A model generated the notes under the pieces. It saw only the letters and a list, made by a program, of their open reading frames with translations, was not told the DNA's origin and searched no databases. A program made the translations under genes and the position numbers. Shown here piece by piece: positions 28,492-60,175 of a stretch of 64,000 nt of DNA. The stretch comes from Anaerohalosphaeraceae bacterium (GTDB taxonomy: Bacteria > Planctomycetota > Phycisphaerae > Sedimentisphaerales > Anaerohalosphaeraceae): contig JBDKVE010000298.1 in NCBI GenBank assembly GCA_039679345.1, forward strand, positions 3,221 through 67,220, written 5' to 3'. Position 1 is the stretch's first letter; each line of letters starts with the position of its first letter.

Positions 28492-31068
28492 ATGACAGGA
28501 AACCTGCGGATTTTAGGAGTGGCAATGCTATTGCTCGGTGCAGGCATGTGTAGTGCCGAAACACAAACGTCTGTGTCGCGTTATCCGGCATATCCTCTTG
28601 TTGCGTGTGATCCGTATTTCAGCGTCTGGTCGCCGGCCGATAAGCTGACGGATGCATCGACTTGCCATTGGACGGGCAAACGTCAGGCGTTGACGAGTCT
28701 GGCTCGGATTGACGGCAAAACCTATCGTTTGATGGGGGATGAGCCGGCTGATATTCCAGCGATGCAGCAGATTGATGTGCAGGTCTTGCCGACACGGACA
28801 ATTTACCGCTTTAATCAGGACAATGTGTCTTTGGAACTGATGTTCTTCCAGCCTGCTTTGCCGGATGATATTACCTGGATGAGCAGTCCCGTTGTGGCGG
28901 TGGTTTGGACATTCAAGTCGTTGAACGGTGCCTCGCACGATGTTCAGGTGTATTTTGAAGGAACAGCGGAGCTGGCGGTGAATGAACCTTCTCAGCAGGT
29001 GGAATTTTTCACGGAGCAGATGGGGCCGCTTTCAGTGCTGCGTACCGGCACGACCGAACAGCGTGTTCTGGGTCGCAAGGGCGATGACCTGCGGATCGAC
29101 TGGGGTTATTTCTACATGGCTGGCGATAAGGGCGGCATCAAGCAGGCCGTGATTACCGATGCCAAACAGGGTCGGCAGGCCTTTGCTCAGGGTGCTGAAT
29201 TGTCCGCCGCTGCGGCTTCAGCCGTGAGCGTGGAGAAGGCACCAGTGATGGCGTTTGTGTCGTCACCGATCAAGGTGGACAATGCCAGTGCCGCGGAGTT
29301 TAAGACATATCTGGCCTATGATGATATTTACAGCATTCTGTATTTTGGTCAGAAGCTGCGTCCGTTCTGGAAGCGAAACGGGGCCACGATTTCGGACCTG
29401 CTGCAGACGACACATAAGGAATTATCTTCTCTGTTTCATCGCTGCGAAGTGTTTGATAAGGAATTAATGAGTGATCTTACGGACGTTGGCGGCCAGAAGT
29501 ACGCCCTGGTCGCATCGCTGGCGTATCGTCAGTGCATCGCCGGCAATAAAATTGCTGCCGACAAAAACGGAATGCCCCTGGTATTCCCCAAGGAAAATCA
29601 CAGCAACGGCTGTATTGCCACCGTTGACATATTTTATCCGATGGCACCGCAGTTTCTGGTCCTGAATCCGACGCTGGCCAAAGGTTCGTTTATTCCGATT
29701 CTGGATTATTCAATGTCGGACCGCTGGAAATTCCCGTTTGCCCCGCATGATTTGGGCACCTATCCGTTTGCGACGGGTCAGGTGTATGGCGGCGGCGAAA
29801 CCGGTGAAGAAAATCAGATGCCCGTGGAAGAATCCGGCAACATGCTGCTGCTGGTTGCCGCAACCTGTCAGGTCGAAGGCAATGCTGATTTTGCAGCCAA
29901 ATACTGGCCGCTGCTGACCAAGTGGGCCCAGTATCTTGAAAGCAAAGGACTGGATCCGGAAAATCAGCTCTGCACGGACGATTTTGCCGGACATTTGGCG
30001 CACAATGTGAACTTGTCGGCCAAGGCGATTCTGGGGCTGGCCGCCTACGGCAAGATGGCCGAGATGCAGGGCTACAAAGACGAAGCGGATAAATATACCA
30101 CCATGGCCCGGAAGTTTGCGCTTCAGTGGATGGAGATGGCCGACGATGGTGACCATTATCGCCTTGCGTTCGATAAGGCCGGCACCTGGAGTCAGAAATA
30201 TAATATCGTTTGGGATCGTCTGCTGGACATGAAGATTTTCCCGCCGTCAGTCGTGAAAAAAGAAATGGCTTACTATAAGAAGATGCAGAACAAGTATGGT
30301 TTGCCGCTGGACAATCGCAGCAAATATACAAAACTGGATTGGATTGTCTGGACAGCGACGCTGGCCGGCAACCGGGAAGATTTCATCACATTGACCGACC
30401 CGATTTATACCTTCCTGAATGAGGCGCCGGATCGGTCGCCGATGACCGACTGGTATTGGACGCACGATGCCAAAAAAGTCGGCTTTACGGCCCGGCCGGT
30501 GGTGGGCGGCGTTTTCATCAAGATGATGGACGATGCTGCATTGTGGCAGAAGTGGGTGAAGAAGGCCCAGAATTTGACGGATCCCTGGGCGGCTCTTCCC
30601 AAGCCTCCGAAGGTGACGGAAATTATCCCGACTTCGGAAAAGCAGGCCTATGACTGGTTCTATACCTTTGAAAAGCCCGCTGACAACTGGACTGCCAAAG
30701 AGTTCCGTCCTGAAAACTGGAAGACCGGCCCGGCCGGCTTTGGCACCAAAGGCACTCCGAGTGCGGTGGTGCGTACCGAATGGAAGACCTCCGATATCTG
30801 GCTGTGGAGAGAGATTGAACTGCCGCAGGCGGTTATGAAAAATCCGCATCTGAAGATTCACCATGACGAAGATGCCCAGGTGTATATTAATGGCCAGTTG
30901 GCATTTAAACTCAGCGGGTATTCCTCCTCGTATGATTTTATTGAAATTCCGGCCGTCACATTGGCCCAATTAAAACCGGGCAAGAATGTGGTTGCGATTC
31001 ATTGTCATCAAACCGGCGGCGGACAATATATCGATATGGGAATTTGCGAATACGAAATTGTTGAGTAA
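28492..31068 (+). CDS. Glutaminase-A-like DUF4964/DUF5127/DUF4965/DUF1793 putative glycoside hydrolase with C-terminal jelly-roll module
   Basis: 858 aa with a signal peptide. Contains YPLVACDPYFSVWS, GCIATVDIFYPMAPQFLVLNPTLAKGSFIPILDY and HDLGTYPFATG. The last ~133 aa are paralogous to the C-terminus of the GH2 at 13637..15910. Confidence 0.75.
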   Translation: MTGNLRILGVAMLLLGAGMCSAETQTSVSRYPAYPLVACDPYFSVWSPADKLTDASTCHWTGKRQALTSLARIDGKTYRLMGDEPADIPAMQQIDVQVLPTRTIYRFNQDNVSLELMFFQPALPDDITWMSSPVVAVVWTFKSLNGASHDVQVYFEGTAELAVNEPSQQVEFFTEQMGPLSVLRTGTTEQRVLGRKGDDLRIDWGYFYMAGDKGGIKQAVITDAKQGRQAFAQGAELSAAAASAVSVEKAPVMAFVSSPIKVDNASAAEFKTYLAYDDIYSILYFGQKLRPFWKRNGATISDLLQTTHKELSSLFHRCEVFDKELMSDLTDVGGQKYALVASLAYRQCIAGNKIAADKNGMPLVFPKENHSNGCIATVDIFYPMAPQFLVLNPTLAKGSFIPILDYSMSDRWKFPFAPHDLGTYPFATGQVYGGGETGEENQMPVEESGNMLLLVAATCQVEGNADFAAKYWPLLTKWAQYLESKGLDPENQLCTDDFAGHLAHNVNLSAKAILGLAAYGKMAEMQGYKDEADKYTTMARKFALQWMEMADDGDHYRLAFDKAGTWSQKYNIVWDRLLDMKIFPPSVVKKEMAYYKKMQNKYGLPLDNRSKYTKLDWIVWTATLAGNREDFITLTDPIYTFLNEAPDRSPMTDWYWTHDAKKVGFTARPVVGGVFIKMMDDAALWQKWVKKAQNLTDPWAALPKPPKVTEIIPTSEKQAYDWFYTFEKPADNWTAKEFRPENWKTGPAGFGTKGTPSAVVRTEWKTSDIWLWREIELPQAVMKNPHLKIHHDEDAQVYINGQLAFKLSGYSSSYDFIEIPAVTLAQLKPGKNVVAIHCHQTGGGQYIDMGICEYEIVE

Positions 31069-31176: not shown

Positions 31177-31256
31177 CCTGTTCCATGGAAGCATTGATTT
31201 TGGCGTCTATCGGCATGGGGGTGGTAGGGCATCTCAGACGTCGGACGTTAATTTAG
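31177..31256 (+). pseudogene. Orphan, frameshifted PEP-CTERM tail (relic 3' end of a seventh paralog)
   Basis: Reads ..P V P then, in a shifted frame, EALILASIGMGVVGHLRRRTLI*. The PAPGA core is reduced to tggaa (4 nt short). No upstream ORF exists, because it starts right at the preceding terminator T-run. It is followed by its own terminator, which is homologous to the one after 32228. Confidence 0.7.
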
Positions 31257-31276
31257 ACATGTTGAATCTTTTTTAG

Positions 31277-31307
31277 GCCGCAGGATGAAAGTGCTGCGGC
31301 TTTTTTT
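31277..31307 (+). terminator. Terminator belonging to the relic PEP-CTERM tail
   Basis: gccgcag..ctgcggc followed by ttttttt atgcgc. This is nearly the same string as at 32273..32292 (ctgcggctttttttatgcgc). Confidence 0.7.
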
Positions 31308-31592
31308 ATGCGCTGCCAGGCGTGAGAAACTCAGAACTTGCTGAAAATAGGATTTTTGCGAGCGGACAAACCTTGAAAAAGGAGCTCCGGAAAATTACCG
31401 ATTGAAAATTAGGTGAAGATACCGGTGTTCCCCGTAACTGCCAATAAAATAAGGTTTTACAATCACCTGGTGCGGCAAATTTGGTGAAAAAAAGGGCAAG
31501 TCAAAGCCTAATCGGCAATTTTCTTGGACTTTGCCCGGAGCCGGCAGGTAAAATACAATCGTGAACTCTTGTAGAATTGGAAGGGAGAAAAT

Positions 31593-32228
31593 ATGAAGAT
31601 CAGGAAATGGTTCATTGTGGGGGTAATGGTTGCGCTGGCAGACTTCGCAAGTGCGTCGGTGACTTATGGATTTTACAACATCACAAACAACAATCCCGAT
31701 GTCGCAGGACAACTTTCGGTTGTATTGGAAGACATTGGGTCAGGTAAGGTTCAGTTTAAGTTTCTCAATGTTGGAATTGTTCAATCTGCGATTGATGCTG
31801 TTTACTTTGATGATCTCGACACTCCCATCCTGACGCCTTTTTTAGTGGTTGACAAAGATAATTATGGGGATACTTCAGTAGATTTTGAATTTGGTACGGC
31901 CAGTCCGCCTAATCTTCCAGGGTGGAATACGGTTAATCCCGATTTTGCAGCTGTAGCTATTGAATCTGCAGGTGCAGTTAAGAATAGTGATCGTGTCTAT
32001 CCGAGTAACTGGCTGGGAATTGTATTCACAGCTTCATATGACAACGTTGTATCTAGCTTAAATGATAAATCACTTCGGATCGGCCTGCATGTGCAATCTA
32101 TAGGTACATCTGGTGGTAGCGATTCTTTTGTCAATAATACTTGCCCAGTTCCCGCCCCCGGTGCAATTCTGCTGGCAGCCATGGGAACGGGGTTGGTGGG
32201 TTATCTGAGACGCCGGACGGTGATTTAA
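31593..32228 (+). CDS. PEP-CTERM-anchored secreted protein (family X)
   Basis: 211 aa with a signal peptide. The C-terminus is CPVPAPGAILLAAMGTGLVGYLRRRTVI. SD gggag. Internal motif LRIGLHVQSIGTSGGSDSF. Confidence 0.85.
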   Translation: MKIRKWFIVGVMVALADFASASVTYGFYNITNNNPDVAGQLSVVLEDIGSGKVQFKFLNVGIVQSAIDAVYFDDLDTPILTPFLVVDKDNYGDTSVDFEFGTASPPNLPGWNTVNPDFAAVAIESAGAVKNSDRVYPSNWLGIVFTASYDNVVSSLNDKSLRIGLHVQSIGTSGGSDSFVNNTCPVPAPGAILLAAMGTGLVGYLRRRTVI

Positions 32229-32254
32229 ATCCAATTATCGAGTCTCTTTTTGAA

Positions 32255-32287
32255 GCCGCGGGACGGAGTGAGCCTGCGGCTTTTTTT
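32255..32287 (+). terminator. Terminator after family X gene
   Basis: gccgcggg pairs with cctgcggc, followed by ttttttt. Confidence 0.75.
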
Positions 32288-32540
32288 ATGCGCACAACGT
32301 AGCCATGTGGGGGTATTTGTTAGCGTTGGATTAATTTTCGCAGAAAATTGAATGGCAGCCTTCAATTGCAAGTTTGCAGCATTCGCTGGATGAAGAGGTT
32401 TTGTGCAGGAATTGTTAAGAGTTGTTAATTTGCAGAAAATAGTGATTTCAATCAGAACTTTCCAAACACCGCAAATGTAGTTGGCTTTATGTAAATTCAA
32501 ACGGACATCAATCAGGTTCAGACTTTTTCTGAAATAACTG

Positions 32541-32569
32541 TTGACAATATAGGACCTGTAAGGTAGAAA
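32541..32569 (+). promoter_or_regulatory. Sigma70-like promoter for A1
   Basis: TTGACA (32541..32546), 17 nt, TAGAAA (32564..32569). Confidence 0.45.
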
Positions 32570-32619
32570 AGTTCGAGTTTATGGAGAAACCTGGAGAAAA
32601 CTGTTTAGGAGAAACAACG

Positions 32620-33261
32620 ATGAGTATGAAACAATTGGTGACTATTTTTACATTAACATTGATGGCCGGAGCGGTTTATGCGGCCCCCACAAAAATTAAA
32701 GCCATTGCCGATGGCGCTCCGTTGAGCCCGGCTTATGAATTCATGGTGACAAACGGAACGCTTGGAATTTATAGTGCACCTCAAAGTTTCAGAACTTTTT
32801 GTCTTGAAGCGGGTGAAACCTTTACCAATGGTGTGACTTACTTTGCCGTAATCAATACGGCGGCGGTCAAGGGCGGTACCGGCAGTTCGGACCCGCTTGA
32901 CCCGCGGACAGCGTATCTGTACACGCAGTATATGGCCGGAGCCTATGGCTACGGTTTTGATACCGAAAATGCTCTGCAGGAAGTCATTCATTACATCGAA
33001 GGCGAACGTTCAGCACTGTCGACCGACGAGGTTTGGTCGGAAAAAGCAGAAACATACCTGAAATATGCAAATAAAAGCGGCTGGACAACCATTGGCAATG
33101 TCCGCGTAGTCAATCTGTGGACCAATTATGATGAGAAGACAAATACCTTCAGCGGTTTTGCCCAGGATCAACTGGTTCTGGTTCCCGCGCCGGGAGCGCT
33201 GCTGCTGGCTTCCATTGGAATGGCTATCGTAGGTGGCTTAAGACGTCGTCAGTCAGTTTAG
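32620..33261 (+). CDS. PEP-CTERM-anchored secreted protein, family A (A1), single conserved Cys
   Basis: The start is taken at MSMKQLV (SD aggaga). Signal peptide; RTFCLEAGETFTNGVTYFAVIN; YLYTQYMAG; ALQEVIHYIEGE; tail FAQDQLVLVPAPGALLLASIGMAIVGGLRRRQSV. Paralog of 35767..36441. Confidence 0.85.
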   Translation: MSMKQLVTIFTLTLMAGAVYAAPTKIKAIADGAPLSPAYEFMVTNGTLGIYSAPQSFRTFCLEAGETFTNGVTYFAVINTAAVKGGTGSSDPLDPRTAYLYTQYMAGAYGYGFDTENALQEVIHYIEGERSALSTDEVWSEKAETYLKYANKSGWTTIGNVRVVNLWTNYDEKTNTFSGFAQDQLVLVPAPGALLLASIGMAIVGGLRRRQSV

Positions 33262-33283
33262 TTTTGTTTATCTTGTTTTTCAA

Positions 33284-33316
33284 GGTCGAGAGTTTTATGG
33301 ACTCTCGACCTTTTTT
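33284..33316 (+). terminator. Terminator after A1
   Basis: A perfect 10-bp stem, ggtcgagagt pairing with actctcgacc, followed by tttttt. Confidence 0.85.
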
Positions 33317-33417
33317 ATTGCATTTCGCAAGCAGGCGTTATAGTCGTTATATGCGCTACACACTGCACATTTTATGCACTTTTACACGATTGTGGATAGA
33401 TAACTGAGTTTCGGACC

Positions 33418-33446
33418 TTGTACCAAAACTCGTTTTTTTTTATAGT
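33418..33446 (+). promoter_or_regulatory. Sigma70-like promoter for B1
   Basis: TTGTAC (33418..33423), 17 nt, TATAGT (33441..33446). This implies a leader of about 160 nt. Confidence 0.4.
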
Positions 33447-33610
33447 AAGCTCACTGAATTTCGATGCGGCCCAAGAGAAGATTTGCTGCCGTATCAGAGA
33501 CATTCGACCTGGGGGGTTGAATTCGACTCAATCGTTTCTTTTGGATTTGAAAGATAACGCCGGATGGTGTTATCAGTCTACACTCTAAAAATATTTTTGG
33601 GGGATTTACT

Positions 33611-34300
33611 ATGAAAAAGAATGTGATTGCAGTACTGCTTCTGGTGATTGCTGTTTCTGTGCCGTGTCTGGCGGCCGAGACTTTAACCATTACGAATCTA
33701 AACTACGCAAATTATGCAAAAATTGTAAGCATTAAAAGTGACCTTTATACCGGCTCTCTCTATGCCGGCGGTTTGGTTTTGACAACTGATGAAGGTACGC
33801 TGTATGGTTTTTGTATCGATATGTATGATCATTCCAATACAGGTATTTTTGAAAAATCAAGCCTTGAACATGCTGCTTTGAGCGTCAATAACCCGAATGG
33901 TCCGATGTCGGCCGCCAAAGCGGATAATGTCCGCAGATTATACGATGTGGCGTACTATAATTATGTTCTGCCGGAAATGGAAAAAGCCCCGGCTGCCGCA
34001 AATAAGGATATTGCCGCTGCATTCCAGTTGTCGGTATGGAATCTGATTTATGATAATGATTTTTCGATAACCAACGGGGCCGGCAGTTTTTACGCCACCT
34101 CCAGTGGGGCCTTTGTAAGTCTGGCCAATACCTGGATGGGACTTTTGGGCAATGCCAGCCTGTCACCGGTGGGCGCGCTGCTGAATGATCGTTATCAGGA
34201 TTTTGCGGTCCCGGTTGCGGTCCCGGCCCCGGGAGCATTAATTCTGTCATCCCTGGGCATGATGCTGGTTGGATATCTCAGACGCGGTCGAACGATGTAA
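33611..34300 (+). CDS. PEP-CTERM-anchored secreted protein, family B (B1), single conserved Cys
   Basis: 229 aa with a signal peptide. GTLYGFCIDMYD; AAAFQLSVWNLIYDND; tail VPVAVPAPGALILSSLGMMLVGYLRRGRTM. Paralog of 36752..37453. Confidence 0.88.
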   Translation: MKKNVIAVLLLVIAVSVPCLAAETLTITNLNYANYAKIVSIKSDLYTGSLYAGGLVLTTDEGTLYGFCIDMYDHSNTGIFEKSSLEHAALSVNNPNGPMSAAKADNVRRLYDVAYYNYVLPEMEKAPAAANKDIAAAFQLSVWNLIYDNDFSITNGAGSFYATSSGAFVSLANTWMGLLGNASLSPVGALLNDRYQDFAVPVAVPAPGALILSSLGMMLVGYLRRGRTM

Positions 34301-34322
34301 ATCGATAAATACTCCAGCAAAA

Positions 34323-34349
34323 ACCGCAGTATAAACACTGCGGTTTTTT
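34323..34349 (+). terminator. Terminator after B1
   Basis: accgcagt pairs with actgcggt, followed by tttttt. Confidence 0.8.
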
Positions 34350-34456
34350 GCTATTGATGGAAACGAGAAAAAGTGAAAATGCCCGGCACAGGCTATGCAA
34401 TCGTTACAGGGCGACTCATTATAAAGAAATTATCAGGGATATTCAGTGAGTTCAAC

Positions 34457-34485
34457 TTGATTTTATACTCGTATTTTCATAGAGT
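34457..34485 (+). promoter_or_regulatory. Sigma70-like promoter for family Y gene (conserved with 35549..35577)
   Basis: TTGATT, 17 nt, TAGAGT. The -35 context caacttgatttt is identical to that at 35546. Confidence 0.55.
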
Positions 34486-34496
34486 GATACTTATGT

Positions 34497-34618
34497 ATGA
34501 AGTCATTTTGCGGTTTACCCAGGATGGGGGTTTTGATTTTTTGGGACAGCACAAAAATTCTATTTTGCATTATCAGAGGACTGTTTCATCTGATATGGAA
34601 TAATCCAAGGCTGGATTG
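34497..34618 (+). promoter_or_regulatory. Conserved non-coding leader element, copy 1
   Basis: It shares these ordered blocks with 35590..35713: atgaagt, tttgc, acccaggatgggggtt, ggacagcacaaa, tgtttcatctgata, ggattg. The reading frames across the blocks differ between the copies. The terminal hairpin aatcca/tggatt versus atccg/cggat shows a compensatory pair change. Confidence 0.55.
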
Positions 34619-34682
34619 AGAATTTAGACTTTGCTTTGGCTTGGCAAAGATGAAAGAACAACTATTTTTGAGAGAAATCAAA

Positions 34683-35471
34683 ATGAAAAAAATATCGATA
34701 CTCATGTTTGCGGTCGCCTTTCAGGCCGTGCTATTTGCAGGGCCGACACTGGATTTGAGTGCTGACGGTGCTTCAGGAAGCATTGATGGTGCTTACTTTA
34801 GACAGACGGCCGCACAATCCACCGGAACAGGCAGTATTCATGCCTTTGTTCGAATGGAAGATGACAATGATAAAGATGCGATTGAGCAGGGATATAATAC
34901 AGACCATCGTCCCCTGAACAAAGGGGCACAATATGATGAGAATTATTCGCCGACATTCACGCGATCTTTATTACTGTCGCTGGTTCCAACCATGAATATA
35001 AATGGAATACTATACAGGGAATTTCTCCTGGATATCAATGAATCTAACTCCGGAACTGAAAGTGAACTATCGCTTGATAATATTAAAATCTATCTGGCAC
35101 ATTCAGGGGATCTGTTCGGTAAACTTCCGCCATCCAATCCTGAAACAGGCGAAGTTGCGACATTAATTTACGACCTCGATAAAGCATCTGATAACTGGAT
35201 TAAGCTGGATTATAGTTTGAATACCGGCAGCGGCAGTGGGGATATGTTTGCCTATATCCCGGATTCTCTATTCAAGACTGAGAATGGGTCGTATGTCTAT
35301 TTTTACTCGATGTTCGGAGAGAATATTGCTGCGGATTCCGGTTTTGAGGAATGGGCGGTCCGACTCAATGTCCCGGTTCCGCCAGTGGCGGTACCTGCTC
35401 CGGGTGCTTTGATGCTGGCTGCGATGGGAATGAGCCTGGTAGGCTATCTCAGACGGGGTCGAAGCCTGTAA
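34683..35471 (+). CDS. PEP-CTERM-anchored secreted protein (family Y)
   Basis: The start is taken at MKKISILMFAVAF. Signal peptide; STGTGSIHAFVRMEDD..IEQGYNTDHRP; ILYREFLLDINESNSGTESELSLDNIKIYL; tail VAVPAPGALMLAAMGMSLVGYLRRGRSL. Confidence 0.85.
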   Translation: MKKISILMFAVAFQAVLFAGPTLDLSADGASGSIDGAYFRQTAAQSTGTGSIHAFVRMEDDNDKDAIEQGYNTDHRPLNKGAQYDENYSPTFTRSLLLSLVPTMNINGILYREFLLDINESNSGTESELSLDNIKIYLAHSGDLFGKLPPSNPETGEVATLIYDLDKASDNWIKLDYSLNTGSGSGDMFAYIPDSLFKTENGSYVYFYSMFGENIAADSGFEEWAVRLNVPVPPVAVPAPGALMLAAMGMSLVGYLRRGRSL

Positions 35472-35548
35472 ATGACTGTACAGGCCGTACAGACGCTACA
35501 AGAGGTCCGGTTTGGATGAAAAAAACAGGGATTGTCCGAGCTACCAAC

Positions 35549-35577
35549 TTGATTTTTAACCTGTTTTTTTGTAGAAT
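35549..35577 (+). promoter_or_regulatory. Sigma70-like promoter for A2 (conserved with 34457..34485)
   Basis: TTGATT (35549..35554), 17 nt, TAGAAT (35572..35577). Confidence 0.55.
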
Positions 35578-35589
35578 GAAACATACATA

Positions 35590-35713
35590 ATGAAGTTTTG
35601 CTTTGTGACTCACCCAGGATGGGGGTTGCGGTTTTCAGGACAGCACAAACACTTTTTATGACAAGGTCAGGTGATTGTTTCATCTGATATTAAATGATCC
35701 GGCGGTCGGATTG
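35590..35713 (+). promoter_or_regulatory. Conserved non-coding leader element, copy 2
   Basis: See copy 1. The same block order and similar spacing occur upstream of a non-homologous gene. Confidence 0.55.
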
Positions 35714-35766
35714 TTAATTGAAATTTACCTTGGTAAGGGTAATCGAATACTGTTTAAATGAGGGGA

Positions 35767-36441
35767 ATGAAGATGAAAACAAAATTGATGATGGTGGCGG
35801 TTCTTTTGTCATTGACGGCTCTGCCGGCGATGGCGGCAGTGAATCTGAAGATGCTTAACGACAGAACACCGGCGTACACGATGCAGGTTCAGGAACAGAT
35901 CGGCGATGTCAAGCCGGGTGTGTATACCTCGATTTGCATCGAGAAGGATGAGACGTTTACTCCTGGTGTTTCGTATTATGGGGTGATGAACGAGAAATTT
36001 GAAGCCAGGATGGGCGGCAATGTTTGGTCTGGCGAAATTGGCAAGAGTGCCGTGGTTGCATCAGGTGGAACGGATAAGCTTGATTATAGTTCAGCCTGGC
36101 TGTTCACCCAGTTTATTACCACGAATAACTATCAGGATGAGGCCGCACTTCAGAATGCGATTCATTATATCGAAGCTGAAAATACAGCCTTGACTGACAT
36201 TCTAATCGGCTCTGATAAGTGGCTTCCGTCTAAGAATCTGTGGCAGAAATATGTTGATGCCGCATTGGCTTCAGGTGCGAACAGCTACGGCGGAGTTCGT
36301 GTTCTGAATATTTGGAAGGATGATACAAAAAGTCAGTTTGCACAGGATCAGATCGTGTATGTCCCGGCCCCGGGAGCGATCGTTCTGGCCTCGATGGGCA
36401 TGGCCTTTGTTGGCTACCTGAGACGTCGCCAATCTATCTAA
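35767..36441 (+). CDS. PEP-CTERM-anchored secreted protein, family A (A2), single conserved Cys
   Basis: The start is taken at MKMKTKL (SD agggga). TSICIEKDETFTPGVSYYGVMN; WLFTQFITT; ALQNAIHYIEAE; tail FAQDQIVYVPAPGAIVLASMGMAFVGYLRRRQSI. Confidence 0.85.
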   Translation: MKMKTKLMMVAVLLSLTALPAMAAVNLKMLNDRTPAYTMQVQEQIGDVKPGVYTSICIEKDETFTPGVSYYGVMNEKFEARMGGNVWSGEIGKSAVVASGGTDKLDYSSAWLFTQFITTNNYQDEAALQNAIHYIEAENTALTDILIGSDKWLPSKNLWQKYVDAALASGANSYGGVRVLNIWKDDTKSQFAQDQIVYVPAPGAIVLASMGMAFVGYLRRRQSI

Positions 36442-36475
36442 GACGCTCAAACAATTTAGAAATTGTACTATCGCA

Positions 36476-36507
36476 AGCCGCGGGATCGAAAATTCCGCGG
36501 CTTTTTT
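36476..36507 (+). terminator. Terminator after A2
   Basis: gccgcgg (36477..36483) pairs with ccgcggc (36495..36501), followed by tttttt. Confidence 0.8.
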
Positions 36508-36751
36508 ATTAATTTTTGTTCAATTTTTACCATTTCTAATTTCTTAAGTCCTTTTTATAGAAGGACTTGAAATTTTACCGTCCAATAATAAGTAGTTCTA
36601 CGGATTGCAATTCTGGCTGGAATCTCCATAATGGATTATATAAGTCGTAGCGTGTGTAACGATATAGACTTTTGTGAGGGGAGAAATCCTACCTGAGTAG
36701 GAGGGTTTCTCCAAAGTAGAGAATACGATCTTTTTGGAAAGGAGATTCGAA

Positions 36752-37453
36752 ATGGAGAAGAAACTGTTTATTGTATTGACCTTGGCGGCCATCCTCGCCT
36801 GCCCAGTCATGGCTGGGCCAACCCTTGGAGACACAATTAATGTGGCGACATACAATTATAATGTCGGATTAGGAGTGACAATTTATAATCCTGTCACAGC
36901 GGCAAACCAAAGCACAATGGCTAGTATTTTTAAGCTTAATAGCAACTATGGAACCCTTTATGGTTTCTGTGTTGACTTGTATGACACTGCTTATGTACCT
37001 TCCAGCTATAAAGGTGTTGAGGTTGCGGAAGTTCCTTCGGATATGAACTTAGGGGCAGGGATGGGAGATGGTAATGCCGAGTTGATTGCGAAACTTTATT
37101 CAAAGGCTTATACAAACACTGTAACAACAAACAAGATTCAAGCCGCAGCATTTCAGTTAGCCGTCTGGAATATAATTTATGACGATGATTCTACAATTGC
37201 TGGTGGAAGTTTCTATGTGGTGAATCCGACGGGCGATGTAAGCGATGCAATAGATCAAGCAAACACTTGGTTAACAAACTTGTCAGATCACAATGGGAGT
37301 AGCAGTTTACTTGGTTTAAGAAATATTGATTCTACTTTTGGTGAAAGTAAATATCAAGATTATGTAATACCAGTTCCCGCTCCTGGAGCGATTCTGCTGG
37401 CTTCGATGGGTATGGGGCTGGTTGGCTGGCTGAGACGGCGTCAGGCTCTGTAA
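36752..37453 (+). CDS. PEP-CTERM-anchored secreted protein, family B (B2), single conserved Cys
   Basis: The start is taken at MEKKLFIV (SD aaggag). GTLYGFCVDLYD; AAAFQLAVWNIIYDDD; tail VIPVPAPGAILLASMGMGLVGWLRRRQAL. Confidence 0.88.
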   Translation: MEKKLFIVLTLAAILACPVMAGPTLGDTINVATYNYNVGLGVTIYNPVTAANQSTMASIFKLNSNYGTLYGFCVDLYDTAYVPSSYKGVEVAEVPSDMNLGAGMGDGNAELIAKLYSKAYTNTVTTNKIQAAAFQLAVWNIIYDDDSTIAGGSFYVVNPTGDVSDAIDQANTWLTNLSDHNGSSSLLGLRNIDSTFGESKYQDYVIPVPAPGAILLASMGMGLVGWLRRRQAL

Positions 37454-37487
37454 GCTGTTACTTTGTAAACGATTAACACGTGTTCAA

Positions 37488-37517
37488 AGCCGCGGAATGG
37501 ATGTCCGCGGCTTTTTT
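37488..37517 (+). terminator. Terminator after B2
   Basis: agccgcgga pairs with tccgcggct, followed by tttttt. Confidence 0.85.
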
Positions 37518-37961
37518 GTTTCTACAAAGCTTTGCCGGTATTCGGATTTTGGGTATTTCTTCATTGTCGTAAAAGCTCCTAATCTCCCTTTGATAAATGT
37601 GACTGCAGCATCCCGCTCTATTTTATGAATCAAGCCTGTTGGGTTATCGGACTGTTGTTGGATCTCAAGAGTCAGTCTCTATGCACCATTTAATGTTCGT
37701 AGGGCAATTTTGAGACGAGGGGGAATAAGGGATGTTACAAAAGTCATATATTTGCGTAATTTGGTAAAAATTCAGTCAAAAAAGCCGATTCTAAGTTAGT
37801 ATAGATGATAGAGGCAGATTGGGATTGCGGGGATGTTTTGTTTAGAAGCGGCTTAAGGATAAATGAATTGTATATAACTATTGTATTTATAACAGCTTGT
37901 AGCTTAATTCAGACATTGGGTTGAGACGTTCTTGTCTGACGGAATGGATAAAGGATTTAAT

Positions 37962-40900
37962 ATGGCTGTATTGTCTCAAAAAGCGACTAATAGACATAAA
38001 AGAACAAATGATCCATTGAGTCCGATGGGTTATTCCTTATGGATGGTTTTTGCCGGCCTTCTGTTCTTAACGTTTACTGTAAAAGCAGAAACATTGACGA
38101 TTACAGATGGCGTTGTGACATACAACAGCTTGTCCAATATGACGGTGAACATGAGTGGGGTGTCGGAATTGCATATTACCAGTGCGACAGCTCCGCTGGC
38201 CGGGTGCACGATTAATCTGGACTCTGTGGATTCATTTTTATTTCTGGAAAATGTCAAGCCTTCAACGGCAAACTCGACCTACCTGAGTCAGATTAAGTTC
38301 AACGGGGCAAACGCGGTTCTGGGGACCAATGTCCGGGTTGTGGAATATGCGGCTGGGGCGGTCATTATACCGCAATCCTCGGTCTTCCAGCCATTGCAGG
38401 TTTTTACGGAAGAGAATTTTCAGGGCAATTCCGCCTATTTAAATCAATACACGGCCTATAATACCAGTTCTCTGGGAACAATGGCATCATCGATCAGTTC
38501 TTTTATTTTAAAGCGGGGCTATACCGCGACATTTGCCCAGAATGAAAACGGCACTGGCTACAGCAAGAACTATGTGGCGCAGGACTGTGATCTGGAAATT
38601 GGTGTTCTTCCGGGCAAGCTCAACGATAAGATTAATTTTGTCCGGGTGTTCCCCTGGCGGTGGGTGAGCAAGAAGGGCATCGCAGGCAACATTGGCTCCA
38701 ACCTGAATATTAAGTGGTGGTATAACTGGAACCTCGACCAGAATTCAACCCTGGACAAGGAATATGTCCCCATACGTCAGAATCGCTGGTGGCCGGGCCT
38801 GAATCAGAATTGGCAGACGCGAGGCGCCAGTCATCTGCTGGGCTATAACGAGCCGGATAATTCAAGCGAAGCCAATATCGCCGTCAGCGATGCGATATGG
38901 TCATGGCCGGATTTGCTTGGGACGGGGCTGCGTGTGGGTTCGCCTGCGCCGACTGATGGCGGGCGGAGCAGTTGGCTGTATCCGTTCATCCAGCATGCGG
39001 ATGCTGCTGATTTGCGGGTCGATTTTGTGGCAGTACATTACTATTGGTGCTACAATCCATCCAATGCCAGCGGTGCGGCAACGCAAATGTACAATTTCCT
39101 TAAAGAGGTCCATGACAACACAGGCCGGCCTATCTGGGTGACGGAGTGGAACAATGGTGCCAACTGGACCGGATGCGGCGATCCGACGTATGCTCAGCAG
39201 GCGGCCGCTATTGGCGCAATGATTGATATGCTCGACAGTACACCGTGGGTCGAGCGGTATGCGATTTATAACTGGGTGGAGGACGTGCGGCGTGTGGAAT
39301 GGGATGACGGCTGGCCGACCGATGCAGGTGCTATCTATCGTGACCAGGTTTCTCCGATTGGCTACCTGCAGGAGGTTCCTGGTTCCGGACGAAGCACCAA
39401 CGCCATTTATTGCTTCGATGAGAATTTCCGGGACAGTTCAGGCAATGGCAACAATCTTCTGAGGTATGGAGCGCCGAAGCTGACCGCAGGACGGGATGGC
39501 AACGTCCTTGTTCTGGATGGGGCAGACGATTATCTGGTGCTGCCAACGCATATTGGCGAATGTGCTGATTTTACATTTGCCGCCTGGGTCTATTGGAACG
39601 GAGGCAATCCATGGCAGCGTATTTTTGATTTTGGAAACAATACAACACAGTATATGTTTTTAACCCCTTCCTCCGGCGGTAATACGCTCCGTTTTGGGAT
39701 TACGACTTCAGGGAATAGTTCCGGTGAACAGCAGATTAATACGTCCGGATTGACTGTGGGACAGTGGACGCATGTGGCCGTTACCCTGAACAGCAATGTC
39801 GGCACAATTTATGTCAACGGTACACCGCGGGCGACGAATGCCTCGATGACGATTAATCCATCCGATTTCCAGCCTTCCAAAAATTACCTCGGCAAGAGCC
39901 AGTGGCCTGATCCGCTGTTCAATGGGATGATGGATGATGTTATGATTGCGGATTATGCGTTGACTGCTGACCAGATTGCGGAGTTGATGACCACGACCCA
40001 GCCGGCTCAGTTTATTACGGCTCCTCTGAATATCATTAGTGTTGCTGCCGGTTCAGAAGAGTCAGGTAACCCGGCCGTCAATTCATACGACCGTAACCGA
40101 GGGACTCGCTGGGCCAATGATGGGACTGTTGCCAATGCCTGGATCAAATACGACCTGGGGGCTGTCTCTGAAATTGATCGCGTAAAAGTGAAATTGAATA
40201 GTGGTAATTCCCGCACCTATCCTGTTCGGATCGAGGTTGATGGTGTTCAAGTCTTCAGCGGCAATACGAATATGACCAGTGGATATTGGCAAACCTCATT
40301 TACACCCACCCGCGGCCGTTATGTTACGATTACCATGACAGGCAACAATAGTGCCGGCAGCGGATGGTTCAGTATTTTAGAGTCGCAAATTTGGAGTCCT
40401 CTCAATAAGCCGCCATTCTTCAATACAAATGCTTTTAACGAGGTTGACGCGACCGAGGGTGCTGTTTACAGCAGTACTCTGGCTGATAACGCTAGTGATC
40501 TAGAAAACGGTTTGCTGATATTCAGCAAAGACGCCGGCTCAGACTGGCTGATTGTATCGCCGGACGGTACGCTTTCAGGCATCCCGCAGGATTCAAATGT
40601 CGGAGCCAACGCCTTTACAGTTCGCGTTACCGACCCCAAGGGATTTTATGATACTGCCACGATGACGATTCAAGCAGCCAACGTCTATTCCGGGGTTCGA
40701 GGATTAGAGGACTTATACGGACTCGCTGCCCGGTGGTTGATGCAGAATTGTGTAGATACCCCTGCCTGCAATGGTGCTGATTTGAATGCTGATAGCAGTG
40801 TTGATATGTCGGATGTTTCGGTGTTGGCCAGTCACTGGCTGTCTGACGAAAATCTTCAGCTCCATTTCAAATTTGACGAAATGAGCGGCGATGCTGCCAT

Positions 40901-41483
40901 GGACGATTCAATCTATAAAAGATATGGCTTGCTTGTCAATGGTCCAATTTGGTCTCCGGGGGTTTCCGGCGGGGCATTGAGTTTTGACGGTGTAGATGAT
41001 TATGTGGTTGTTTCCGATTATCAGGGCATTGCTGGTTCTGCTTCCCGGACTTGTACGGCATGGATCAAGACTACACCTGCAAATATCGATCAGAATATCT
41101 TGTCTTGGGGTACGGCAGCGACCGGCCAGAAATGGATGTTCCGCACACAGGCCGGCGGTGGGGAACCTGCAATTGCGGTCTGGGGTGGCTACTGTAAGGG
41201 GAACACCTCCGTCTGCGACAATCAATGGCATCATGTCGCTGCGGTTCTTGTGGATGATGGGTCTGCAACAGTGAATGAAGTCCTGCTGTATGTAGATGGT
41301 CAACTGCAGGCACCCTCGTTTGTCAACACCCAGGCTGTGAATACTCTCCGTAACGATTCGCTTTATATTGGAGCCTTTGAGAACAACGGACTTTTGCAGA
41401 ATTTCTTCTGCGGACTCATTGACGATGTCCGGATTTACCACCGTGCCCTCGATGCAGAAGAAATCGCTGAAATAACAAAATAA
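37962..41483 (+). CDS. Secreted multidomain protein: GH128-like (Glyco_hydro_cc) catalytic core + LamG + F5/8-type-C/CBM32-like + Ig-like + dockerin-like + LamG
   Basis: KWWYNWN, LLGYNEPD, VGSPAP, DFVAVHYYW and PIWVTEWN match the glycosyl-hydrolase catalytic-core family. LamG: LDGADDYLVLP..FTFAAWVYW..QWTHVAVT..IYVNG..DDVMIADYAL. Discoidin-like: RGTRWANDG..AWIKYDLG. Dockerin-like: DLNADSSVDMSDVSVLASHWL. A second LamG sits at the C-terminus. The start is taken at ATG 37962 (the track uses TTG 37932). Confidence 0.8.
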   Translation: MAVLSQKATNRHKRTNDPLSPMGYSLWMVFAGLLFLTFTVKAETLTITDGVVTYNSLSNMTVNMSGVSELHITSATAPLAGCTINLDSVDSFLFLENVKPSTANSTYLSQIKFNGANAVLGTNVRVVEYAAGAVIIPQSSVFQPLQVFTEENFQGNSAYLNQYTAYNTSSLGTMASSISSFILKRGYTATFAQNENGTGYSKNYVAQDCDLEIGVLPGKLNDKINFVRVFPWRWVSKKGIAGNIGSNLNIKWWYNWNLDQNSTLDKEYVPIRQNRWWPGLNQNWQTRGASHLLGYNEPDNSSEANIAVSDAIWSWPDLLGTGLRVGSPAPTDGGRSSWLYPFIQHADAADLRVDFVAVHYYWCYNPSNASGAATQMYNFLKEVHDNTGRPIWVTEWNNGANWTGCGDPTYAQQAAAIGAMIDMLDSTPWVERYAIYNWVEDVRRVEWDDGWPTDAGAIYRDQVSPIGYLQEVPGSGRSTNAIYCFDENFRDSSGNGNNLLRYGAPKLTAGRDGNVLVLDGADDYLVLPTHIGECADFTFAAWVYWNGGNPWQRIFDFGNNTTQYMFLTPSSGGNTLRFGITTSGNSSGEQQINTSGLTVGQWTHVAVTLNSNVGTIYVNGTPRATNASMTINPSDFQPSKNYLGKSQWPDPLFNGMMDDVMIADYALTADQIAELMTTTQPAQFITAPLNIISVAAGSEESGNPAVNSYDRNRGTRWANDGTVANAWIKYDLGAVSEIDRVKVKLNSGNSRTYPVRIEVDGVQVFSGNTNMTSGYWQTSFTPTRGRYVTITMTGNNSAGSGWFSILESQIWSPLNKPPFFNTNAFNEVDATEGAVYSSTLADNASDLENGLLIFSKDAGSDWLIVSPDGTLSGIPQDSNVGANAFTVRVTDPKGFYDTATMTIQAANVYSGVRGLEDLYGLAARWLMQNCVDTPACNGADLNADSSVDMSDVSVLASHWLSDENLQLHFKFDEMSGDAAMDDSIYKRYGLLVNGPIWSPGVSGGALSFDGVDDYVVVSDYQGIAGSASRTCTAWIKTTPANIDQNILSWGTAATGQKWMFRTQAGGGEPAIAVWGGYCKGNTSVCDNQWHHVAAVLVDDGSATVNEVLLYVDGQLQAPSFVNTQAVNTLRNDSLYIGAFENNGLLQNFFCGLIDDVRIYHRALDAEEIAEITK

Positions 41484-49853: not shown

Positions 49854-51155
49854 ATGAAAATCACGGTCGTTGGAGTCGGTTATGTTGGATTGGTTGCGGC
49901 AGCATGTCTGGCCGATGGAGGCAACCATGTCATCTGTGTGGATACGGACGAAAAGAAGATCGAAGGCCTCAAGAAAGGCATCATCCCTATCTATGAGCCG
50001 GGTTTGGCCGAAATTGTCGCCCGTAATGAAAAGTCCGGCCGTCTGACCTTTACCACCAATTTGAAAGAGGGTGTGGATAATTCTCTGCTGATACTTCTGG
50101 GGGTAGGGACTCCCAGTGCAGCGGATGGCTCGGCCGATATTTCAGCGGTATTGAGTGCGGCCGGTCGGATTGCTGAAATTATGACCAGCTATAAAATTAT
50201 TGTGACTAAAAGCACAGTACCGGTTGGGACGCACAAGATTGTCAACAAATGGATTCAGTCCAAGACTGAAATCCCGTTTGATTATGTCAGTAATCCGGAG
50301 TTTCTTAAGGAAGGCTCCGCGGTTGAAGATTTTATGAAGCCTGACCGGGTTATTATCGGGACGACCAATCCGGCGGTGATGGAAATCATGCGGGAATTAT
50401 ATAATCCCTTCATGCGGAAAAGCAGCCGAATTCTGTTTATGGACCCGGCCAGTGCCGAAATGGCCAAGTATGCCGCCAATACAATGCTGGCAACCCGTGT
50501 TTCGTTTATGAATGAACTGTCGATGCTGTGTGAAAAGGTTGGTGCCGACATCGAACAGGTTCGGGCCGGCATGGGCAGCGATTCTCGAATCGGCAACGCT
50601 TTCTTGTTTGCCGGGGTGGGCTATGGGGGCAGTTGTTTTCCCAAGGATGTCCGGGCGTTGATTTATATGGGCAATCAGGCCGGCGTGCCGATGTCCATTG
50701 CTCAATCCGTACAAAAAGTCAACATGGACCAGCAGGCCCAGTTTGCCGACAAAATTATCAGTTATTTCAAAGGACAGTCCAATGTCCAGCTTGGCGTCTG
50801 GGGGCTTGCGTTCAAGGCCCGCACGGATGATATCCGTGAATCCCCGGCGTTATTCTGCATCGAAAAATTTCTGTCTGCTGGAATCAAGGTTGTGGCCTTT
50901 GATCCGGAAGCGATGGCTCCGACCCGCCAGAAGCTCGGAGATAAAATTTGCCTGGTGGACAATGGCTATGATGTTCTGGATGGTTCTGCTGCATTAGTGA
51001 TCTTTACTGATTGGCAGGAATTCCGAACCCCGGACCTGGAACAGATTGCCAAGCGGCTGCTGAAGCCGCTGATATTTGACGGCCGCAATCTCTATACCCC
51101 GACATTCGTCAAGCGATTCGGCATTGAATATCATTGTATCGGACGTCCCTGTTAA
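49854..51155 (+). CDS. ugd: UDP-glucose 6-dehydrogenase
   Basis: 433 aa. N-terminal MKITVVGVGYVGLV. Catalytic GGSCFPKD. Confidence 0.92.
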   Translation: MKITVVGVGYVGLVAAACLADGGNHVICVDTDEKKIEGLKKGIIPIYEPGLAEIVARNEKSGRLTFTTNLKEGVDNSLLILLGVGTPSAADGSADISAVLSAAGRIAEIMTSYKIIVTKSTVPVGTHKIVNKWIQSKTEIPFDYVSNPEFLKEGSAVEDFMKPDRVIIGTTNPAVMEIMRELYNPFMRKSSRILFMDPASAEMAKYAANTMLATRVSFMNELSMLCEKVGADIEQVRAGMGSDSRIGNAFLFAGVGYGGSCFPKDVRALIYMGNQAGVPMSIAQSVQKVNMDQQAQFADKIISYFKGQSNVQLGVWGLAFKARTDDIRESPALFCIEKFLSAGIKVVAFDPEAMAPTRQKLGDKICLVDNGYDVLDGSAALVIFTDWQEFRTPDLEQIAKRLLKPLIFDGRNLYTPTFVKRFGIEYHCIGRPC

Positions 51156-58700: not shown

Positions 58701-58804
58701 GGGCTTCATTAAAAATATGGTGATTAAGCCGGGGCTGTCCCGGCTGTCTGCATGCGGACGGTGTTGTCCGCAGCGAATGACTATTTTAATGAATGGAGGT
58801 AACA

Positions 58805-60175
58805 ATGAAACGGTGTCTGATGATGTGCTGTCTGAGTGTCTGTGTCTCGTTAGTCAATGCCGATTGGCCCCGTATTGACGTGTGTATCAATCCTTCAAAA
58901 CAGGAAGGCCCCGCCATCGATGGCAATCTGGTGGCATGGTCGGATCAGCGAAGCGGAACACTCAATGCCGATATTTACGGCAGGCTGCTTCCTGATGTCA
59001 ACGAATTGCAGATTTGTACGGCCGCCGGCCATCAGACCCGTCCCGCCGTCAGCGGACAGCGGATTGTCTGGCAGGATGCCCGCAGCAAAAACAATGATAT
59101 CTATCTTTTTGATATGACTGCAAACGCCGAAATTCCCATTTGTACCGATGCCGCCAGTCAGGAAAACCCCGATATCAGCGGCAGCATCATTGTCTGGGAA
59201 GACTATCGTGGTGGCAATATGGATATCTACGGATACAACCTCAATACAATGACCGAATTTGTGATTTGTACAGATGCTGCCCTTCAGTATCAGCCCGTCA
59301 TTTCGGGGCATATTGTTGTCTGGACTGACCTGCGTAATGGTAATCAGGATATCTATGGATACAACCTGCTGACCCATCAGGAATTTGTGATTTGTACGGA
59401 TTCCGCTAATCAGCTCAATCCCGATATCAGCGGCACAATTGTCGTCTGGCAGGATGAACGAAATCAGGCATCTACCGGCCGGGATATTTATGGGTTTGAC
59501 CTGTCGGGTGCCGGCGAATTTGCAGTGTGTGTGTCTCCCGAATATCAGAATTTCCCGGCCATCTGCGGGGATTATATCGTCTGGCGTGATTATCGCAACA
59601 CCGCTGCCAGCGGCTATGACATCTACGGCCTCAATCGCAAGACACAGACAATCATGGAAATCTGCACCGCCGGCGGCGAACAGGCGTATCCCGTCGTTTC
59701 GTCGCGATATGTGGTCTGGCAACATGGTGAAGATGTTGTCGGCGCTGAACTGCCGATTCATTCGACCGTTACGGTGATCTATCCCAATGGCGGCCAGATG
59801 TTTCTGACCGGCTCTCTGCAAACGGTTCAGTGGAAGACCGAAGGGGACCCGATTGATGAAGTTCGGATCGATTTTTACGCTGACAACGGCCAGGGCTGGC
59901 AGATACTGGCAGAAGCTGTCGCCAACACAGGCACCTGTCAGATTACACTGCCGTCGGGGATTCATTCCCAGCAGTGTATGATTCGAGTGCGTTCAACGGC
60001 CAATCTGGATGTCAGTGACAGCAGCGATGCCGTCTTTACCGTATTTCAATGTGCCCAGACCCTGACGGCGGACCTGACCGGTGATTGTTTTGTCAATCTG
60101 GCCGATTTTGCCGTCTTGGCCGACCAATGGCTGACCTGCGGCAATCCTTACGATCCATCCTGGTGCCAACAGTAG
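58805..60175 (+). CDS. Secreted beta-propeller repeat protein with Ig-like domain and dockerin-like C-terminus
   Basis: The start is taken at MKRCLMMCC (SD ggagg). About 6.5 repeats of roughly 42-47 aa follow the consensus Q..P.ISG..IVW.D.R.GN.DIYGYNL.T..EF.ICTD. The C-terminus has ADLTGDCFVNLADFAVLADQWL. Confidence 0.85.
   Translation: MKRCLMMCCLSVCVSLVNADWPRIDVCINPSKQEGPAIDGNLVAWSDQRSGTLNADIYGRLLPDVNELQICTAAGHQTRPAVSGQRIVWQDARSKNNDIYLFDMTANAEIPICTDAASQENPDISGSIIVWEDYRGGNMDIYGYNLNTMTEFVICTDAALQYQPVISGHIVVWTDLRNGNQDIYGYNLLTHQEFVICTDSANQLNPDISGTIVVWQDERNQASTGRDIYGFDLSGAGEFAVCVSPEYQNFPAICGDYIVWRDYRNTAASGYDIYGLNRKTQTIMEICTAGGEQAYPVVSSRYVVWQHGEDVVGAELPIHSTVTVIYPNGGQMFLTGSLQTVQWKTEGDPIDEVRIDFYADNGQGWQILAEAVANTGTCQITLPSGIHSQQCMIRVRSTANLDVSDSSDAVFTVFQCAQTLTADLTGDCFVNLADFAVLADQWLTCGNPYDPSWCQQ
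58901..59752 (+). repeat. Intragenic tandem coding repeats (propeller blades)
   Basis: The blades begin at QEGPAIDG, QTRPAVSG, QENPDISG, QYQPVISG, QLNPDISG, QNFPAICG and QAYPVVSS. Confidence 0.8.

Follow-up and report, generated by a model that had tools for sequence, protein, structure and literature searches.

Protein sorting through the PEP-CTERM/exosortase system (TIGR02595, PF07589) was reportedly described by Haft in 2006, and of the tens of thousands of PEP-CTERM proteins that exist almost none, to our knowledge, has a known function. Here we describe six genes in tandem that encode small exported proteins with PEP-CTERM-like VPAPGA tails, found in an Anaerohalosphaeraceae bacterium of the Planctomycetota (GenBank assembly GCA_039679345.1, contig JBDKVE010000298.1). 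The whole stretch analysed, 64,000 nucleotides at positions 3,221 to 67,220 of the forward strand, is termed the window; coordinates are window positions unless another locus is named, and every array feature lies on the + strand.

PepA of Zoogloea and Aquincola is a small PEP-CTERM flocculation protein encoded by a monocistronic, sigma-54-dependent gene with its own promoter and terminator; upon its overexpression, bound exopolysaccharide goes up and soluble exopolysaccharide goes down (PMC9850573). According to the literature until 2026, thioester domains (TEDs) are restricted to Gram-positive Firmicutes and Actinobacteria (e.g. PMC4450167), where they occur in TIE proteins and pilus adhesins such as SfbI, FbaB, Cpa, CpTIE and SaTIE (PF08341). 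Their motifs, as given by Walden et al. 2015 (PMC4450167), are a [YFL]C-hydrophobic-polar strand with the Cys, a TQxx-hydrophobic-W helix, and a hydrophobic-Q-polar strand with the Gln. Our literature search found no published link between TEDs and PEP-CTERM, exosortases or Planctomycetes. Polymorphic pilin and adhesin loci have conserved ends and middle parts that are exchangeable through allele replacement.

The window array is probably a set of six separately transcribed genes for exported proteins with tails of a PEP-CTERM variant type, four of the proteins being TED-like and the ectodomains of the two outer slots having been exchanged among relatives. An earlier note on this DNA had described six same-strand genes for proteins of 211-262 aa with a signal peptide and a VPAPGA tail; this description holds, with start codons slightly corrected. 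What is mainly added here is the proposal that four of the genes encode TED-like proteins, together with the exchange of cassettes seen at the outer slots. In array order, the six open reading frames (ORFs) found by ORF scan are X, A1, B1, Y, A2 and B2; for the likely starts we followed how NCBI and JGI annotate these proteins or their orthologues. Proteins identical to those of the array have been deposited from an Anaerohalosphaeraceae metagenome-assembled genome (Sedimentisphaerales, Phycisphaerae), on a contig of 67.5 kb. All six proteins have a signal peptide, a single ectodomain and, at the C-terminus, a tail for sorting or anchoring.

Thioester-domain-like proteins in the array

Four of the genes fall into two paralog pairs: A1 (32620..33261, 213 aa, VPAPGA from 33181; the ORF is open back to 32581) with A2 (35773..36441, 222 aa, VPAPGA from 36361), and B1 (33611..34300, 229 aa, VPAPGA from 34220) with B2, the occupant of slot 6 (36752..37453, 233 aa, VPAPGA from 37373, with a hypervariable core at 36814-37372). 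These pairs had been recognized in the earlier note, and pairwise identity is 37.7% for A1/A2 and 36.8% for B1/B2, but the four sequence families counted there become three. A full-length alignment of A2 with B2 gives 26% identity (E 4e-16), and the A and B family profiles align by hhalign with probability 100 and E 3e-45, their conserved Cys and Gln positions coinciding. Judged by these alignments, A and B are one superfamily.

AlphaFold models built from the family alignments were confident, with pLDDT 89.6 and pTM 0.81 for A1, and pLDDT 88.3 and pTM 0.83 for B2. The best four Foldseek matches in the PDB are all TEDs in both cases: 5a0g, 5a0d D and A, and 5a0n for A1 (probability 0.99-1.0), and 6fx6, 5dcq D and E, and 5a0n for B2 (probability 0.94-0.98). 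The TEDs matched by the two models are those of S. aureus TIE, S. equi FNE, an S. pneumoniae FbaB-like protein and C. perfringens TIE; the next-ranked matches of either model have a probability of at most 0.11.

All three TED motifs are present in A1, B1, A2 and B2, in the right order and in matching predicted secondary structure. Given in that protein order, the Cys strand reads FCLE, FCID, ICIE and FCVD (A2 has Ile before the Cys); the helix reads LQEVIH, FQLSVW, LQNAIH and FQLAVW, the Thr of the TED motif being absent; and the Gln strand reads AQDQL, YQDFA, AQDQI and YQDYV, placed 6-8 residues before VPAPGA. The consensus is F/I-C-[ILV]-[ED] for the first, [FL]-Q-x-[AVS]-[IV]-[WH] for the second and [AY]-Q-D for the third. 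The TQxx-hydrophobic-W helix motif is common, not universal, among TEDs. The Cys, helix Gln and strand Gln are Cys61 (32800-32802), Gln120 (32977-32979) and Gln182 (33163-33165) in A1; Cys68 (33812-33814), Gln139 (34025-34027) and Gln196 (34196-34198) in B1; Cys55 (35935-35937), Gln127 (36151-36153) and Gln191 (36343-36345) in A2; and Cys73 (36968-36970), Gln135 (37154-37156) and Gln202 (37355-37357) in B2.

These residues are strongly retained among homologues. Of the 52 sequences in the A alignment, all have the predicted thioester Cys, 50 the helix Gln and 51 the strand Gln; of the 49 in the mixed B alignment, 45 have the Cys, 43 the helix Gln and 45 the strand Gln. When B sequences alone are aligned, the helix Gln is nearly invariant, and Cys, Trp, strand Gln and Asp are invariant. 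Because each mature A1, B1, A2 or B2 protein has a single Cys, this residue is not a disulfide partner. From the models and the motifs together we conclude that A1, B1, A2 and B2 are probably single-domain TED-like proteins, with predicted thioester pairs C61-Q182 (A1), C68-Q196 (B1), C55-Q191 (A2) and C73-Q202 (B2).

Several observations weigh against this conclusion. Foldseek returned its TED matches with modest E-values (6e-4 to 2e-2) and with TM-scores of 0.42-0.57, the target-normalised TM of A1 reaching 0.57. The TED model PF08341 scores B1 at 15.3 bits and B2 at 15.0-15.1 bits, below its gathering cut-off (15 vs 22 bits); 12 of the 49 B-search homologues match it at E <= 1, as does just one of the 52 A-family members, and it matches neither A1 nor A2. 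In the helix, A1 and A2 have His at the position of the Trp. Sequence searches of PDB chains, run with B2 alone and with the A, B and B-only profiles, find no TED and no other credible relative; because the profile searches find none, the kinship of A and B to TEDs is remote.

An alternative that we consider unlikely is that the four are ordinary PEP-CTERM-type surface or matrix proteins with a TED fold and no thioester, the Cys and Gln serving metal binding, folding or some other modification. Sequence similarity to TEDs lies under every curated threshold, and the literature confines TEDs to two Gram-positive groups, both as this alternative would have it. Against it stand the unpaired single Cys and the Gln of the matching strand, which are invariant across families otherwise 20-40% identical, the three TED motifs occurring in order, and the top four structural matches of two independent models, which are exclusively TEDs.

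On the preferred reading, in which the four proteins are TED-like with a predicted thioester, they agree with the Gram-positive TEDs in several respects: the predicted fold is a beta-sandwich with a helical subdomain, motif order and secondary-structure context are the same, and both would be secreted surface proteins with a variable surface around a conserved, presumably reactive pair. They differ in that their host is a diderm planctomycete, and in that LPXTG, isopeptide or ester stalk repeats and a multi-domain architecture are all missing. Here the TED would be the entire ectodomain, its last strand abutting the sorting motif. The helix differs too, without Thr and with His for Trp in A1 and A2, and Pfam scores stay below threshold.

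The VPAPGA tail

All six proteins begin with a hydrophobic signal-peptide-like segment, as judged by eye and by the N-terminal helix in the A1 and B2 models, and all six end in the same tail architecture: VPAPGA, about 14 hydrophobic residues, RRR or RRGR, and then two or three residues. A six-frame motif scan of the 64 kb found no further VPAPGA-type tail beyond the array. The Glu of the Pro-Glu-Pro motif is missing from all six tails, with Ala in its place, and curated models respond weakly. Against the PF07589 (PEP-CTERM) cut-off of 20.7 bits, B2 alone passes with 22.1, followed by X (19.0), A2 (17.1), Y (16.4) and B1 (10.4), with none for A1. TIGR02595 passes none of the six and appears for A1 alone (12.4 vs 16), and all other NCBIfam sorting-domain models stay below their cut-offs for the six tails.

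Homologues elsewhere place the tail more clearly. At the same position of the A-family alignment, 28 of the 52 homologues carry a VPAPGA-type motif and 15 the canonical VPEP, and a few A-core homologues end at that place in VPLPA- or MYXO-CTERM-type tails. The Pfam PEP-CTERM model, taken at E <= 1, matches 49/49 B-search and 44/52 A-family homologues. Because homologous cores carry VPEP tails at the same alignment position, VPAPGA is best read, on this comparison, as a lineage-typical Glu-less variant of the PEP-CTERM class. The PEP-CTERM label given to these tails earlier thus stands for a variant class and not for the canonical one, and in the profile check suggested with it the tails mostly fail: one passes PF07589, five do not, and TIGR02595 accepts none.

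Three things count against surface delivery by an exosortase. With the Glu of PEP missing, exosortase processing is an assumption. No exosortase family matches any of the 36 large window ORFs (Pfam), nor did a crude motif screen (a CSG motif plus at least four hydrophobic segments) find one in 741 kb of related loci, a screen that is uninformative given that exosortases are not expected beside their substrates. Such proteins would also have to cross the outer membrane, a difficulty that they share with the PEP-CTERM class as a whole.

A second alternative, to which we assign a somewhat smaller chance than to a fold without thioester, takes VPAPGA as a plain membrane anchor: with no exosortase involved, the proteins would face the periplasm and might react with cell wall or periplasmic partners. 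The absence of the defining Glu, the five of six tails under the Pfam cut-off, the window free of an exosortase gene, and the failure of every NCBIfam sorting-domain model at cut-off are all in its favor. It accounts poorly for a tail that stays 88-100% identical from allele to allele when identity between the cores is about 20%, as is typical of a recognised signal and not of a generic anchor; for the conservation of the motif ahead of the helix and of the fixed two or three residues after the Arg cluster; and for the homologous cores elsewhere that have, at this position, tails of the canonical VPEP, the VPLPA or the MYXO-CTERM type.

Read as a PEP-CTERM variant, the array proteins share with that class the N-terminal signal peptide, the tripartite C-terminal tail (VP motif, membrane helix, Arg cluster), the many paralogs per genome, the small size and the monocistronic genes with terminators. 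They depart from it in the sequence V-P-A-P-G-A, with Ala for Glu, in tails that mostly fall below cut-off, and in the fixed ending of RRR plus two or three residues.

Exchange of ectodomains at the outer slots

We compared the array with syntenic arrays on four metagenome contigs (L001-L004) and in the genomes L005 (Anaerohalosphaeraceae bacterium U12dextr), L006, L007 and L009; the flanking genes of the array are the same in L009 and L001. The inner TED-like genes are stable, with cores of A1, B1 and A2 72-82% identical among relatives, except for A2 versus L009 (66%). Their dN/dS values lie at 0.14-0.35 for the array genes, compared with 0.10-0.15 for the neighbouring hydrolases and 0.03-0.04 for housekeeping genes; with such values, the array genes are functional and under purifying selection.

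The outer slots behave differently. Slot 1 holds X (31593..32228, 211 aa, VPAPGA tail 32148-32228), in which the DNA is homologous to that of relatives as far as 31654-31655, where the signal peptide ends, and again from 32147-32149, the first base of VPAPGA, setting break points at 31655 and 32148. In slot 6, homology stops at 36813, again the end of the signal peptide, and returns at 37373-37376, at the VPAPGA codons, after which tail and terminator are 84-93% identical to those of relatives. In relatives the X core gives way to unrelated ones, and across six genomes the identity of slot-1 cores is 17-50%, with tails 85-100% identical; slot-6 cores form at least three classes, 17-27% identical between classes, with tails 88-100% identical. 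L005, L006, L007 and L009 have A-like or other TED cores in slot 6 between the same ends as in B2. With non-B cores there in four of five relatives, the A-B-A-B order is specific to this lineage and one close relative.

A larger pool of slot-6 alleles came from database matches to B2. Twelve protein clusters share the B2 signal peptide (76-90%) and tail (92-100%), and in 11 of the 12 the core is merely 20-28% identical to that of B2. The alleles are mostly 18-40% identical to one another, and none of the 12 has lost the Cys motif or the Q[DS] strand. Among close homologues of A1 the ectodomain-swap pattern is absent.

The simplest reading of these alignments is that repeated homologous exchange at the conserved ends of slots 1 and 6 replaces what lies between; we infer this mechanism of recombination from the pattern. 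A possible objection is that all but one of the comparison genomes are metagenome-assembled genomes or metagenome contigs, and assembly chimeras could explain some of the differences. The slot break points recur in independent assemblies.

The likeness to polymorphic pilin and adhesin loci is that a conserved leader and signal peptide on one side and a conserved tail and terminator on the other flank a divergent, presumably exposed domain with many alleles. The difference is that here genomes vary from one another and not internally. The window was found to have none of the silent cassettes, invertases or repeats that programmed switching would use.

Whole cassettes are gained and lost as well. 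Variation in copy number, which the earlier note had proposed looking for in related genomes, is indeed seen: Y is missing from L005 and truncated in L004, and L009 has a seventh gene (7945-8637 of that locus) between the upstream hydrolase and slot 1, with a tail ending ...GMGVVGHLRRRAVI and a core 40% identical to X. In L005 a single ~100-nt element joins B1 to A2. The L009 seventh-gene tail matches a relic sorting tail in the window, located upstream of X at 31185..31256; it reads ...MEALILASIGMGVVGHLRRRTLI, also written as ...SCSMEALILASIGMGVVGHLRRRTLI, up to the stop. The relic, already noticed before, is real and has its own terminator; from the match of the tails we take it as the remnant of the seventh gene that is intact in L009.

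Divergence along the array is uneven. Compared with L009, dS is ~1.0-1.2 for A1 and B1 and 0.36-0.5 for Y and A2, and Y is 87-93% identical to its counterparts in L001 and L009 and 46-63% identical to those in L006 and L007. This mosaic suggests that neighbouring cassettes have different histories. The locus is a variation hotspot, in which the signal-peptide, tail-plus-terminator and leader sequences are conserved.

Tandem runs of four or five tail-bearing genes were also seen in other Sedimentisphaerales (L016:6702-10495, L023:2262-5474 and L024:1777-4927). Each run includes one A-type TED gene, and the spacers are much shorter, at ~70-320 nt. Arrays of tail genes appear to be a recurring organization.

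Transcription units

The intergenic spacers are AT-rich, as had been noted (GC 36-40% vs 50.6% for the window), and at 301-391 nt they are shorter than the 350-480 nt first given. RNA folding confirms terminators after five of the six genes and a weak candidate after Y. Strong hairpins with U-runs follow the relic (31275..31309, -17.5 kcal/mol), X (32252..32290), A1 (33282..33318, z -5.9), B1 (34316..34351, z -6.6), A2 (36475..36509) and B2 (37486..37520). These six range from -17.5 to -22 kcal/mol, with z of -3 to -6.6 for four of them. Folding found no strong terminator 3' of Y, where there is only a weak long-loop A/U stem with z -1.4.

Across six genomes, the long regions upstream of all six genes are at least as conserved as the coding sequences (the X-A1 spacer is 84-87% identical and the A1 coding sequence 76-79%), and each gene is preceded by invariant promoter-like and leader blocks. 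Because the spacers are conserved at least as well as the coding sequences and contain these blocks, we read the genes as separate, regulated transcription units. The genes look like independent cassettes, as had been proposed, with five strong terminators and conserved upstream regions. The conserved blocks upstream of X and A1 resemble sigma-70 -35/-10 boxes. Sigma-54 promoters were considered by way of PepA and were not established, -24/-12 elements not having been looked for systematically.

A conserved element of ~100 nt, with the pattern ACCCAGGATGGGGGTT...GGACAGCACAAA...TGTTTCATCTGATAT, precedes both Y (34507..34606) and A2 (35602..35700). It is conserved in relatives and is present as a single copy in L005, which has no Y. 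We rejected a dispersed repeat, since the whole window has just two copies; our best reading is that of an upstream region that has been duplicated or is common to the two genes, perhaps as a promoter/leader used by both or as the footprint of a Y insertion or loss.

Slot 6 has a conserved 5' leader (36623..36751) that is near-invariant in six genomes. It includes an invariant 13-bp hairpin (36680-36712) and a possible long-range helix between GAATCTCC (36623-36630) and the Shine-Dalgarno stretch GGAGATTC (36741-36748). Covariation analysis found one compensatory pair, the genomes having too little sequence variation for a test of the structure. Rfam had no match at gathering thresholds in the window, and at E <= 1 in the array one terminator-like chance match. 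The leader may be a translational control element.

We give little credence to a third alternative, that of an old duplication of an A-B unit, also put forward in the earlier note, in an otherwise static and possibly co-transcribed paralog array: A1/A2 and B1/B2 are each ~37% identical, the A-B order occurs twice, the ~100-nt element is doubled upstream of Y and A2, and Y has no strong terminator, but slot 6 is hypervariable and holds cores other than B in most relatives, break points coincide exactly with the signal-peptide end and with VPAPGA, dS forms a mosaic across the cassettes, and the five strong terminators and the conserved promoter-like leaders before each gene argue against co-transcription.

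The X and Y families

By hhalign, X and Y share just the tail with the TED families; with similarity confined to the tail, we ruled out that they are degenerate TEDs. The X family has 2236 cluster representatives at E <= 1e-3, with conserved motifs that include LRIGLHVQ. An X-type core sits in slot 1 here and in the extra slot 0 of L009 (40% identity), and L009 slot 1 has a core unrelated to X behind an X-like signal peptide.

Y (34683..35471, 262 aa; the ORF is open back to 34641, and the VPAPGA tail starts at 35391) is far better conserved than its TED-like neighbours. Its family has more than 1100 proteins, ~50% identical across the Planctomycetota, with GSGSGD, FEEW (GFEEWA) and YREFLLDIN invariant, and has no match in Pfam, NCBIfam or PDB sequences. 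Some members have CarboxypepD_reg or SdrD_B domains in place of the tail.

Genomic surroundings

A Pfam scan of the 36 large window ORFs placed a GtaA six-hairpin hydrolase-type gene immediately upstream of the array (28492-31068) and a Glyco_hydro_cc + LamG + F5/8 protein immediately downstream of it (37932-41483). The other window genes have housekeeping functions or encode glycoside hydrolases, and nucleotide-sugar genes begin downstream of the array at 49854. The carbohydrate-active flanks, the downstream sugar locus and the lack of an exosortase gene in the window are as first described. An exported 460-aa protein (58793-60175) without a Pfam match has repeats of ~40 residues ending ...DIYG(Y/F)(N/D)L and a C-terminal DLTGDCFVNLADFAVLADQWL stretch, which is similar to a NADSSVDMSDVSVLASHWL stretch in the hydrolase at 37932-41483. 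By eye, both stretches look dockerin-like.

Discussion

The A family extends well beyond this locus. When genomes were scanned with the A-family profile, 43 loci came up, mostly in Phycisphaerae and other Planctomycetota and for the rest in Acidobacteriota, Armatimonadota and Syntrophia-type Deltaproteobacteria, all of them diderm lineages. We propose tentatively, and with more doubt than for the array itself, that these proteins are an unannotated diderm branch of TED 'chemical harpoon' adhesins, delivered by the PEP-CTERM/exosortase route by way of VPAPGA and diversified through exchange of ectodomains.

Such a system might work as follows. The proteins would be exported through the Sec pathway and retained by the C-terminal helix, until an exosortase-type enzyme cleaves the tail and transfers the protein. 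In the four TED-like proteins, the single Cys of the F-C-[ILV]-[ED] strand and the Gln of the Q-D strand would form an internal thioester, over which the Q-x-A-[IV]-[WH] helix would pack. A compact, stalkless TED would thereby be displayed, and, by analogy with the TED family, attack on its thioester by an amine of the target would produce a covalent tether, be it to a substrate particle, a polymer or another cell. Exchange of the mature-domain segments of the first and last slots at their conserved ends, most simply by homologous recombination, may serve to vary specificity; the exchange pattern is seen in the alignments, and the purpose is our suggestion. Whole cassettes would be gained or lost besides, as with Y and the relic seventh gene.

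PepA offers a possible parallel. Like PepA, the array proteins are small, monocistronic and of PEP-CTERM type, and the shift of exopolysaccharide from soluble to bound upon PepA overexpression would fit a tethering role. They differ in that pepA is sigma-54 dependent, whereas the blocks upstream of X and A1 look sigma-70-like. They are not members of the PepA model NF033554, which scores A1 at 27.8 and B1 at 19.7 bits against a cut-off of 80 bits; over the core, it has sub-threshold matches to 19 of the 52 A-family members at E <= 0.01 (best E 1.5e-9). The relation of the A family to PepA is thus distant at most, a lead rather than a membership.

The VPAPGA motif is missed by curated models, which has left A1 and Y deposited as 'hypothetical'. 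Two fields meet in a protein whose TED-type ectodomain runs directly into a PEP-CTERM-type tail. The conserved-end cassette would make a natural scaffold for display engineering, and the precise swapping of ectodomains marks a target of diversifying pressure, whether from phage, grazers or changing substrates. If our interpretation is true, small PEP-CTERM proteins, possibly including the floc-forming PepA, would gain a chemical mechanism in covalent cell-polymer or cell-cell tethering, and covalent attachment would bear on the way in which anaerobic polysaccharide degraders keep their grip on particles, as well as on the formation of flocs and biofilms.

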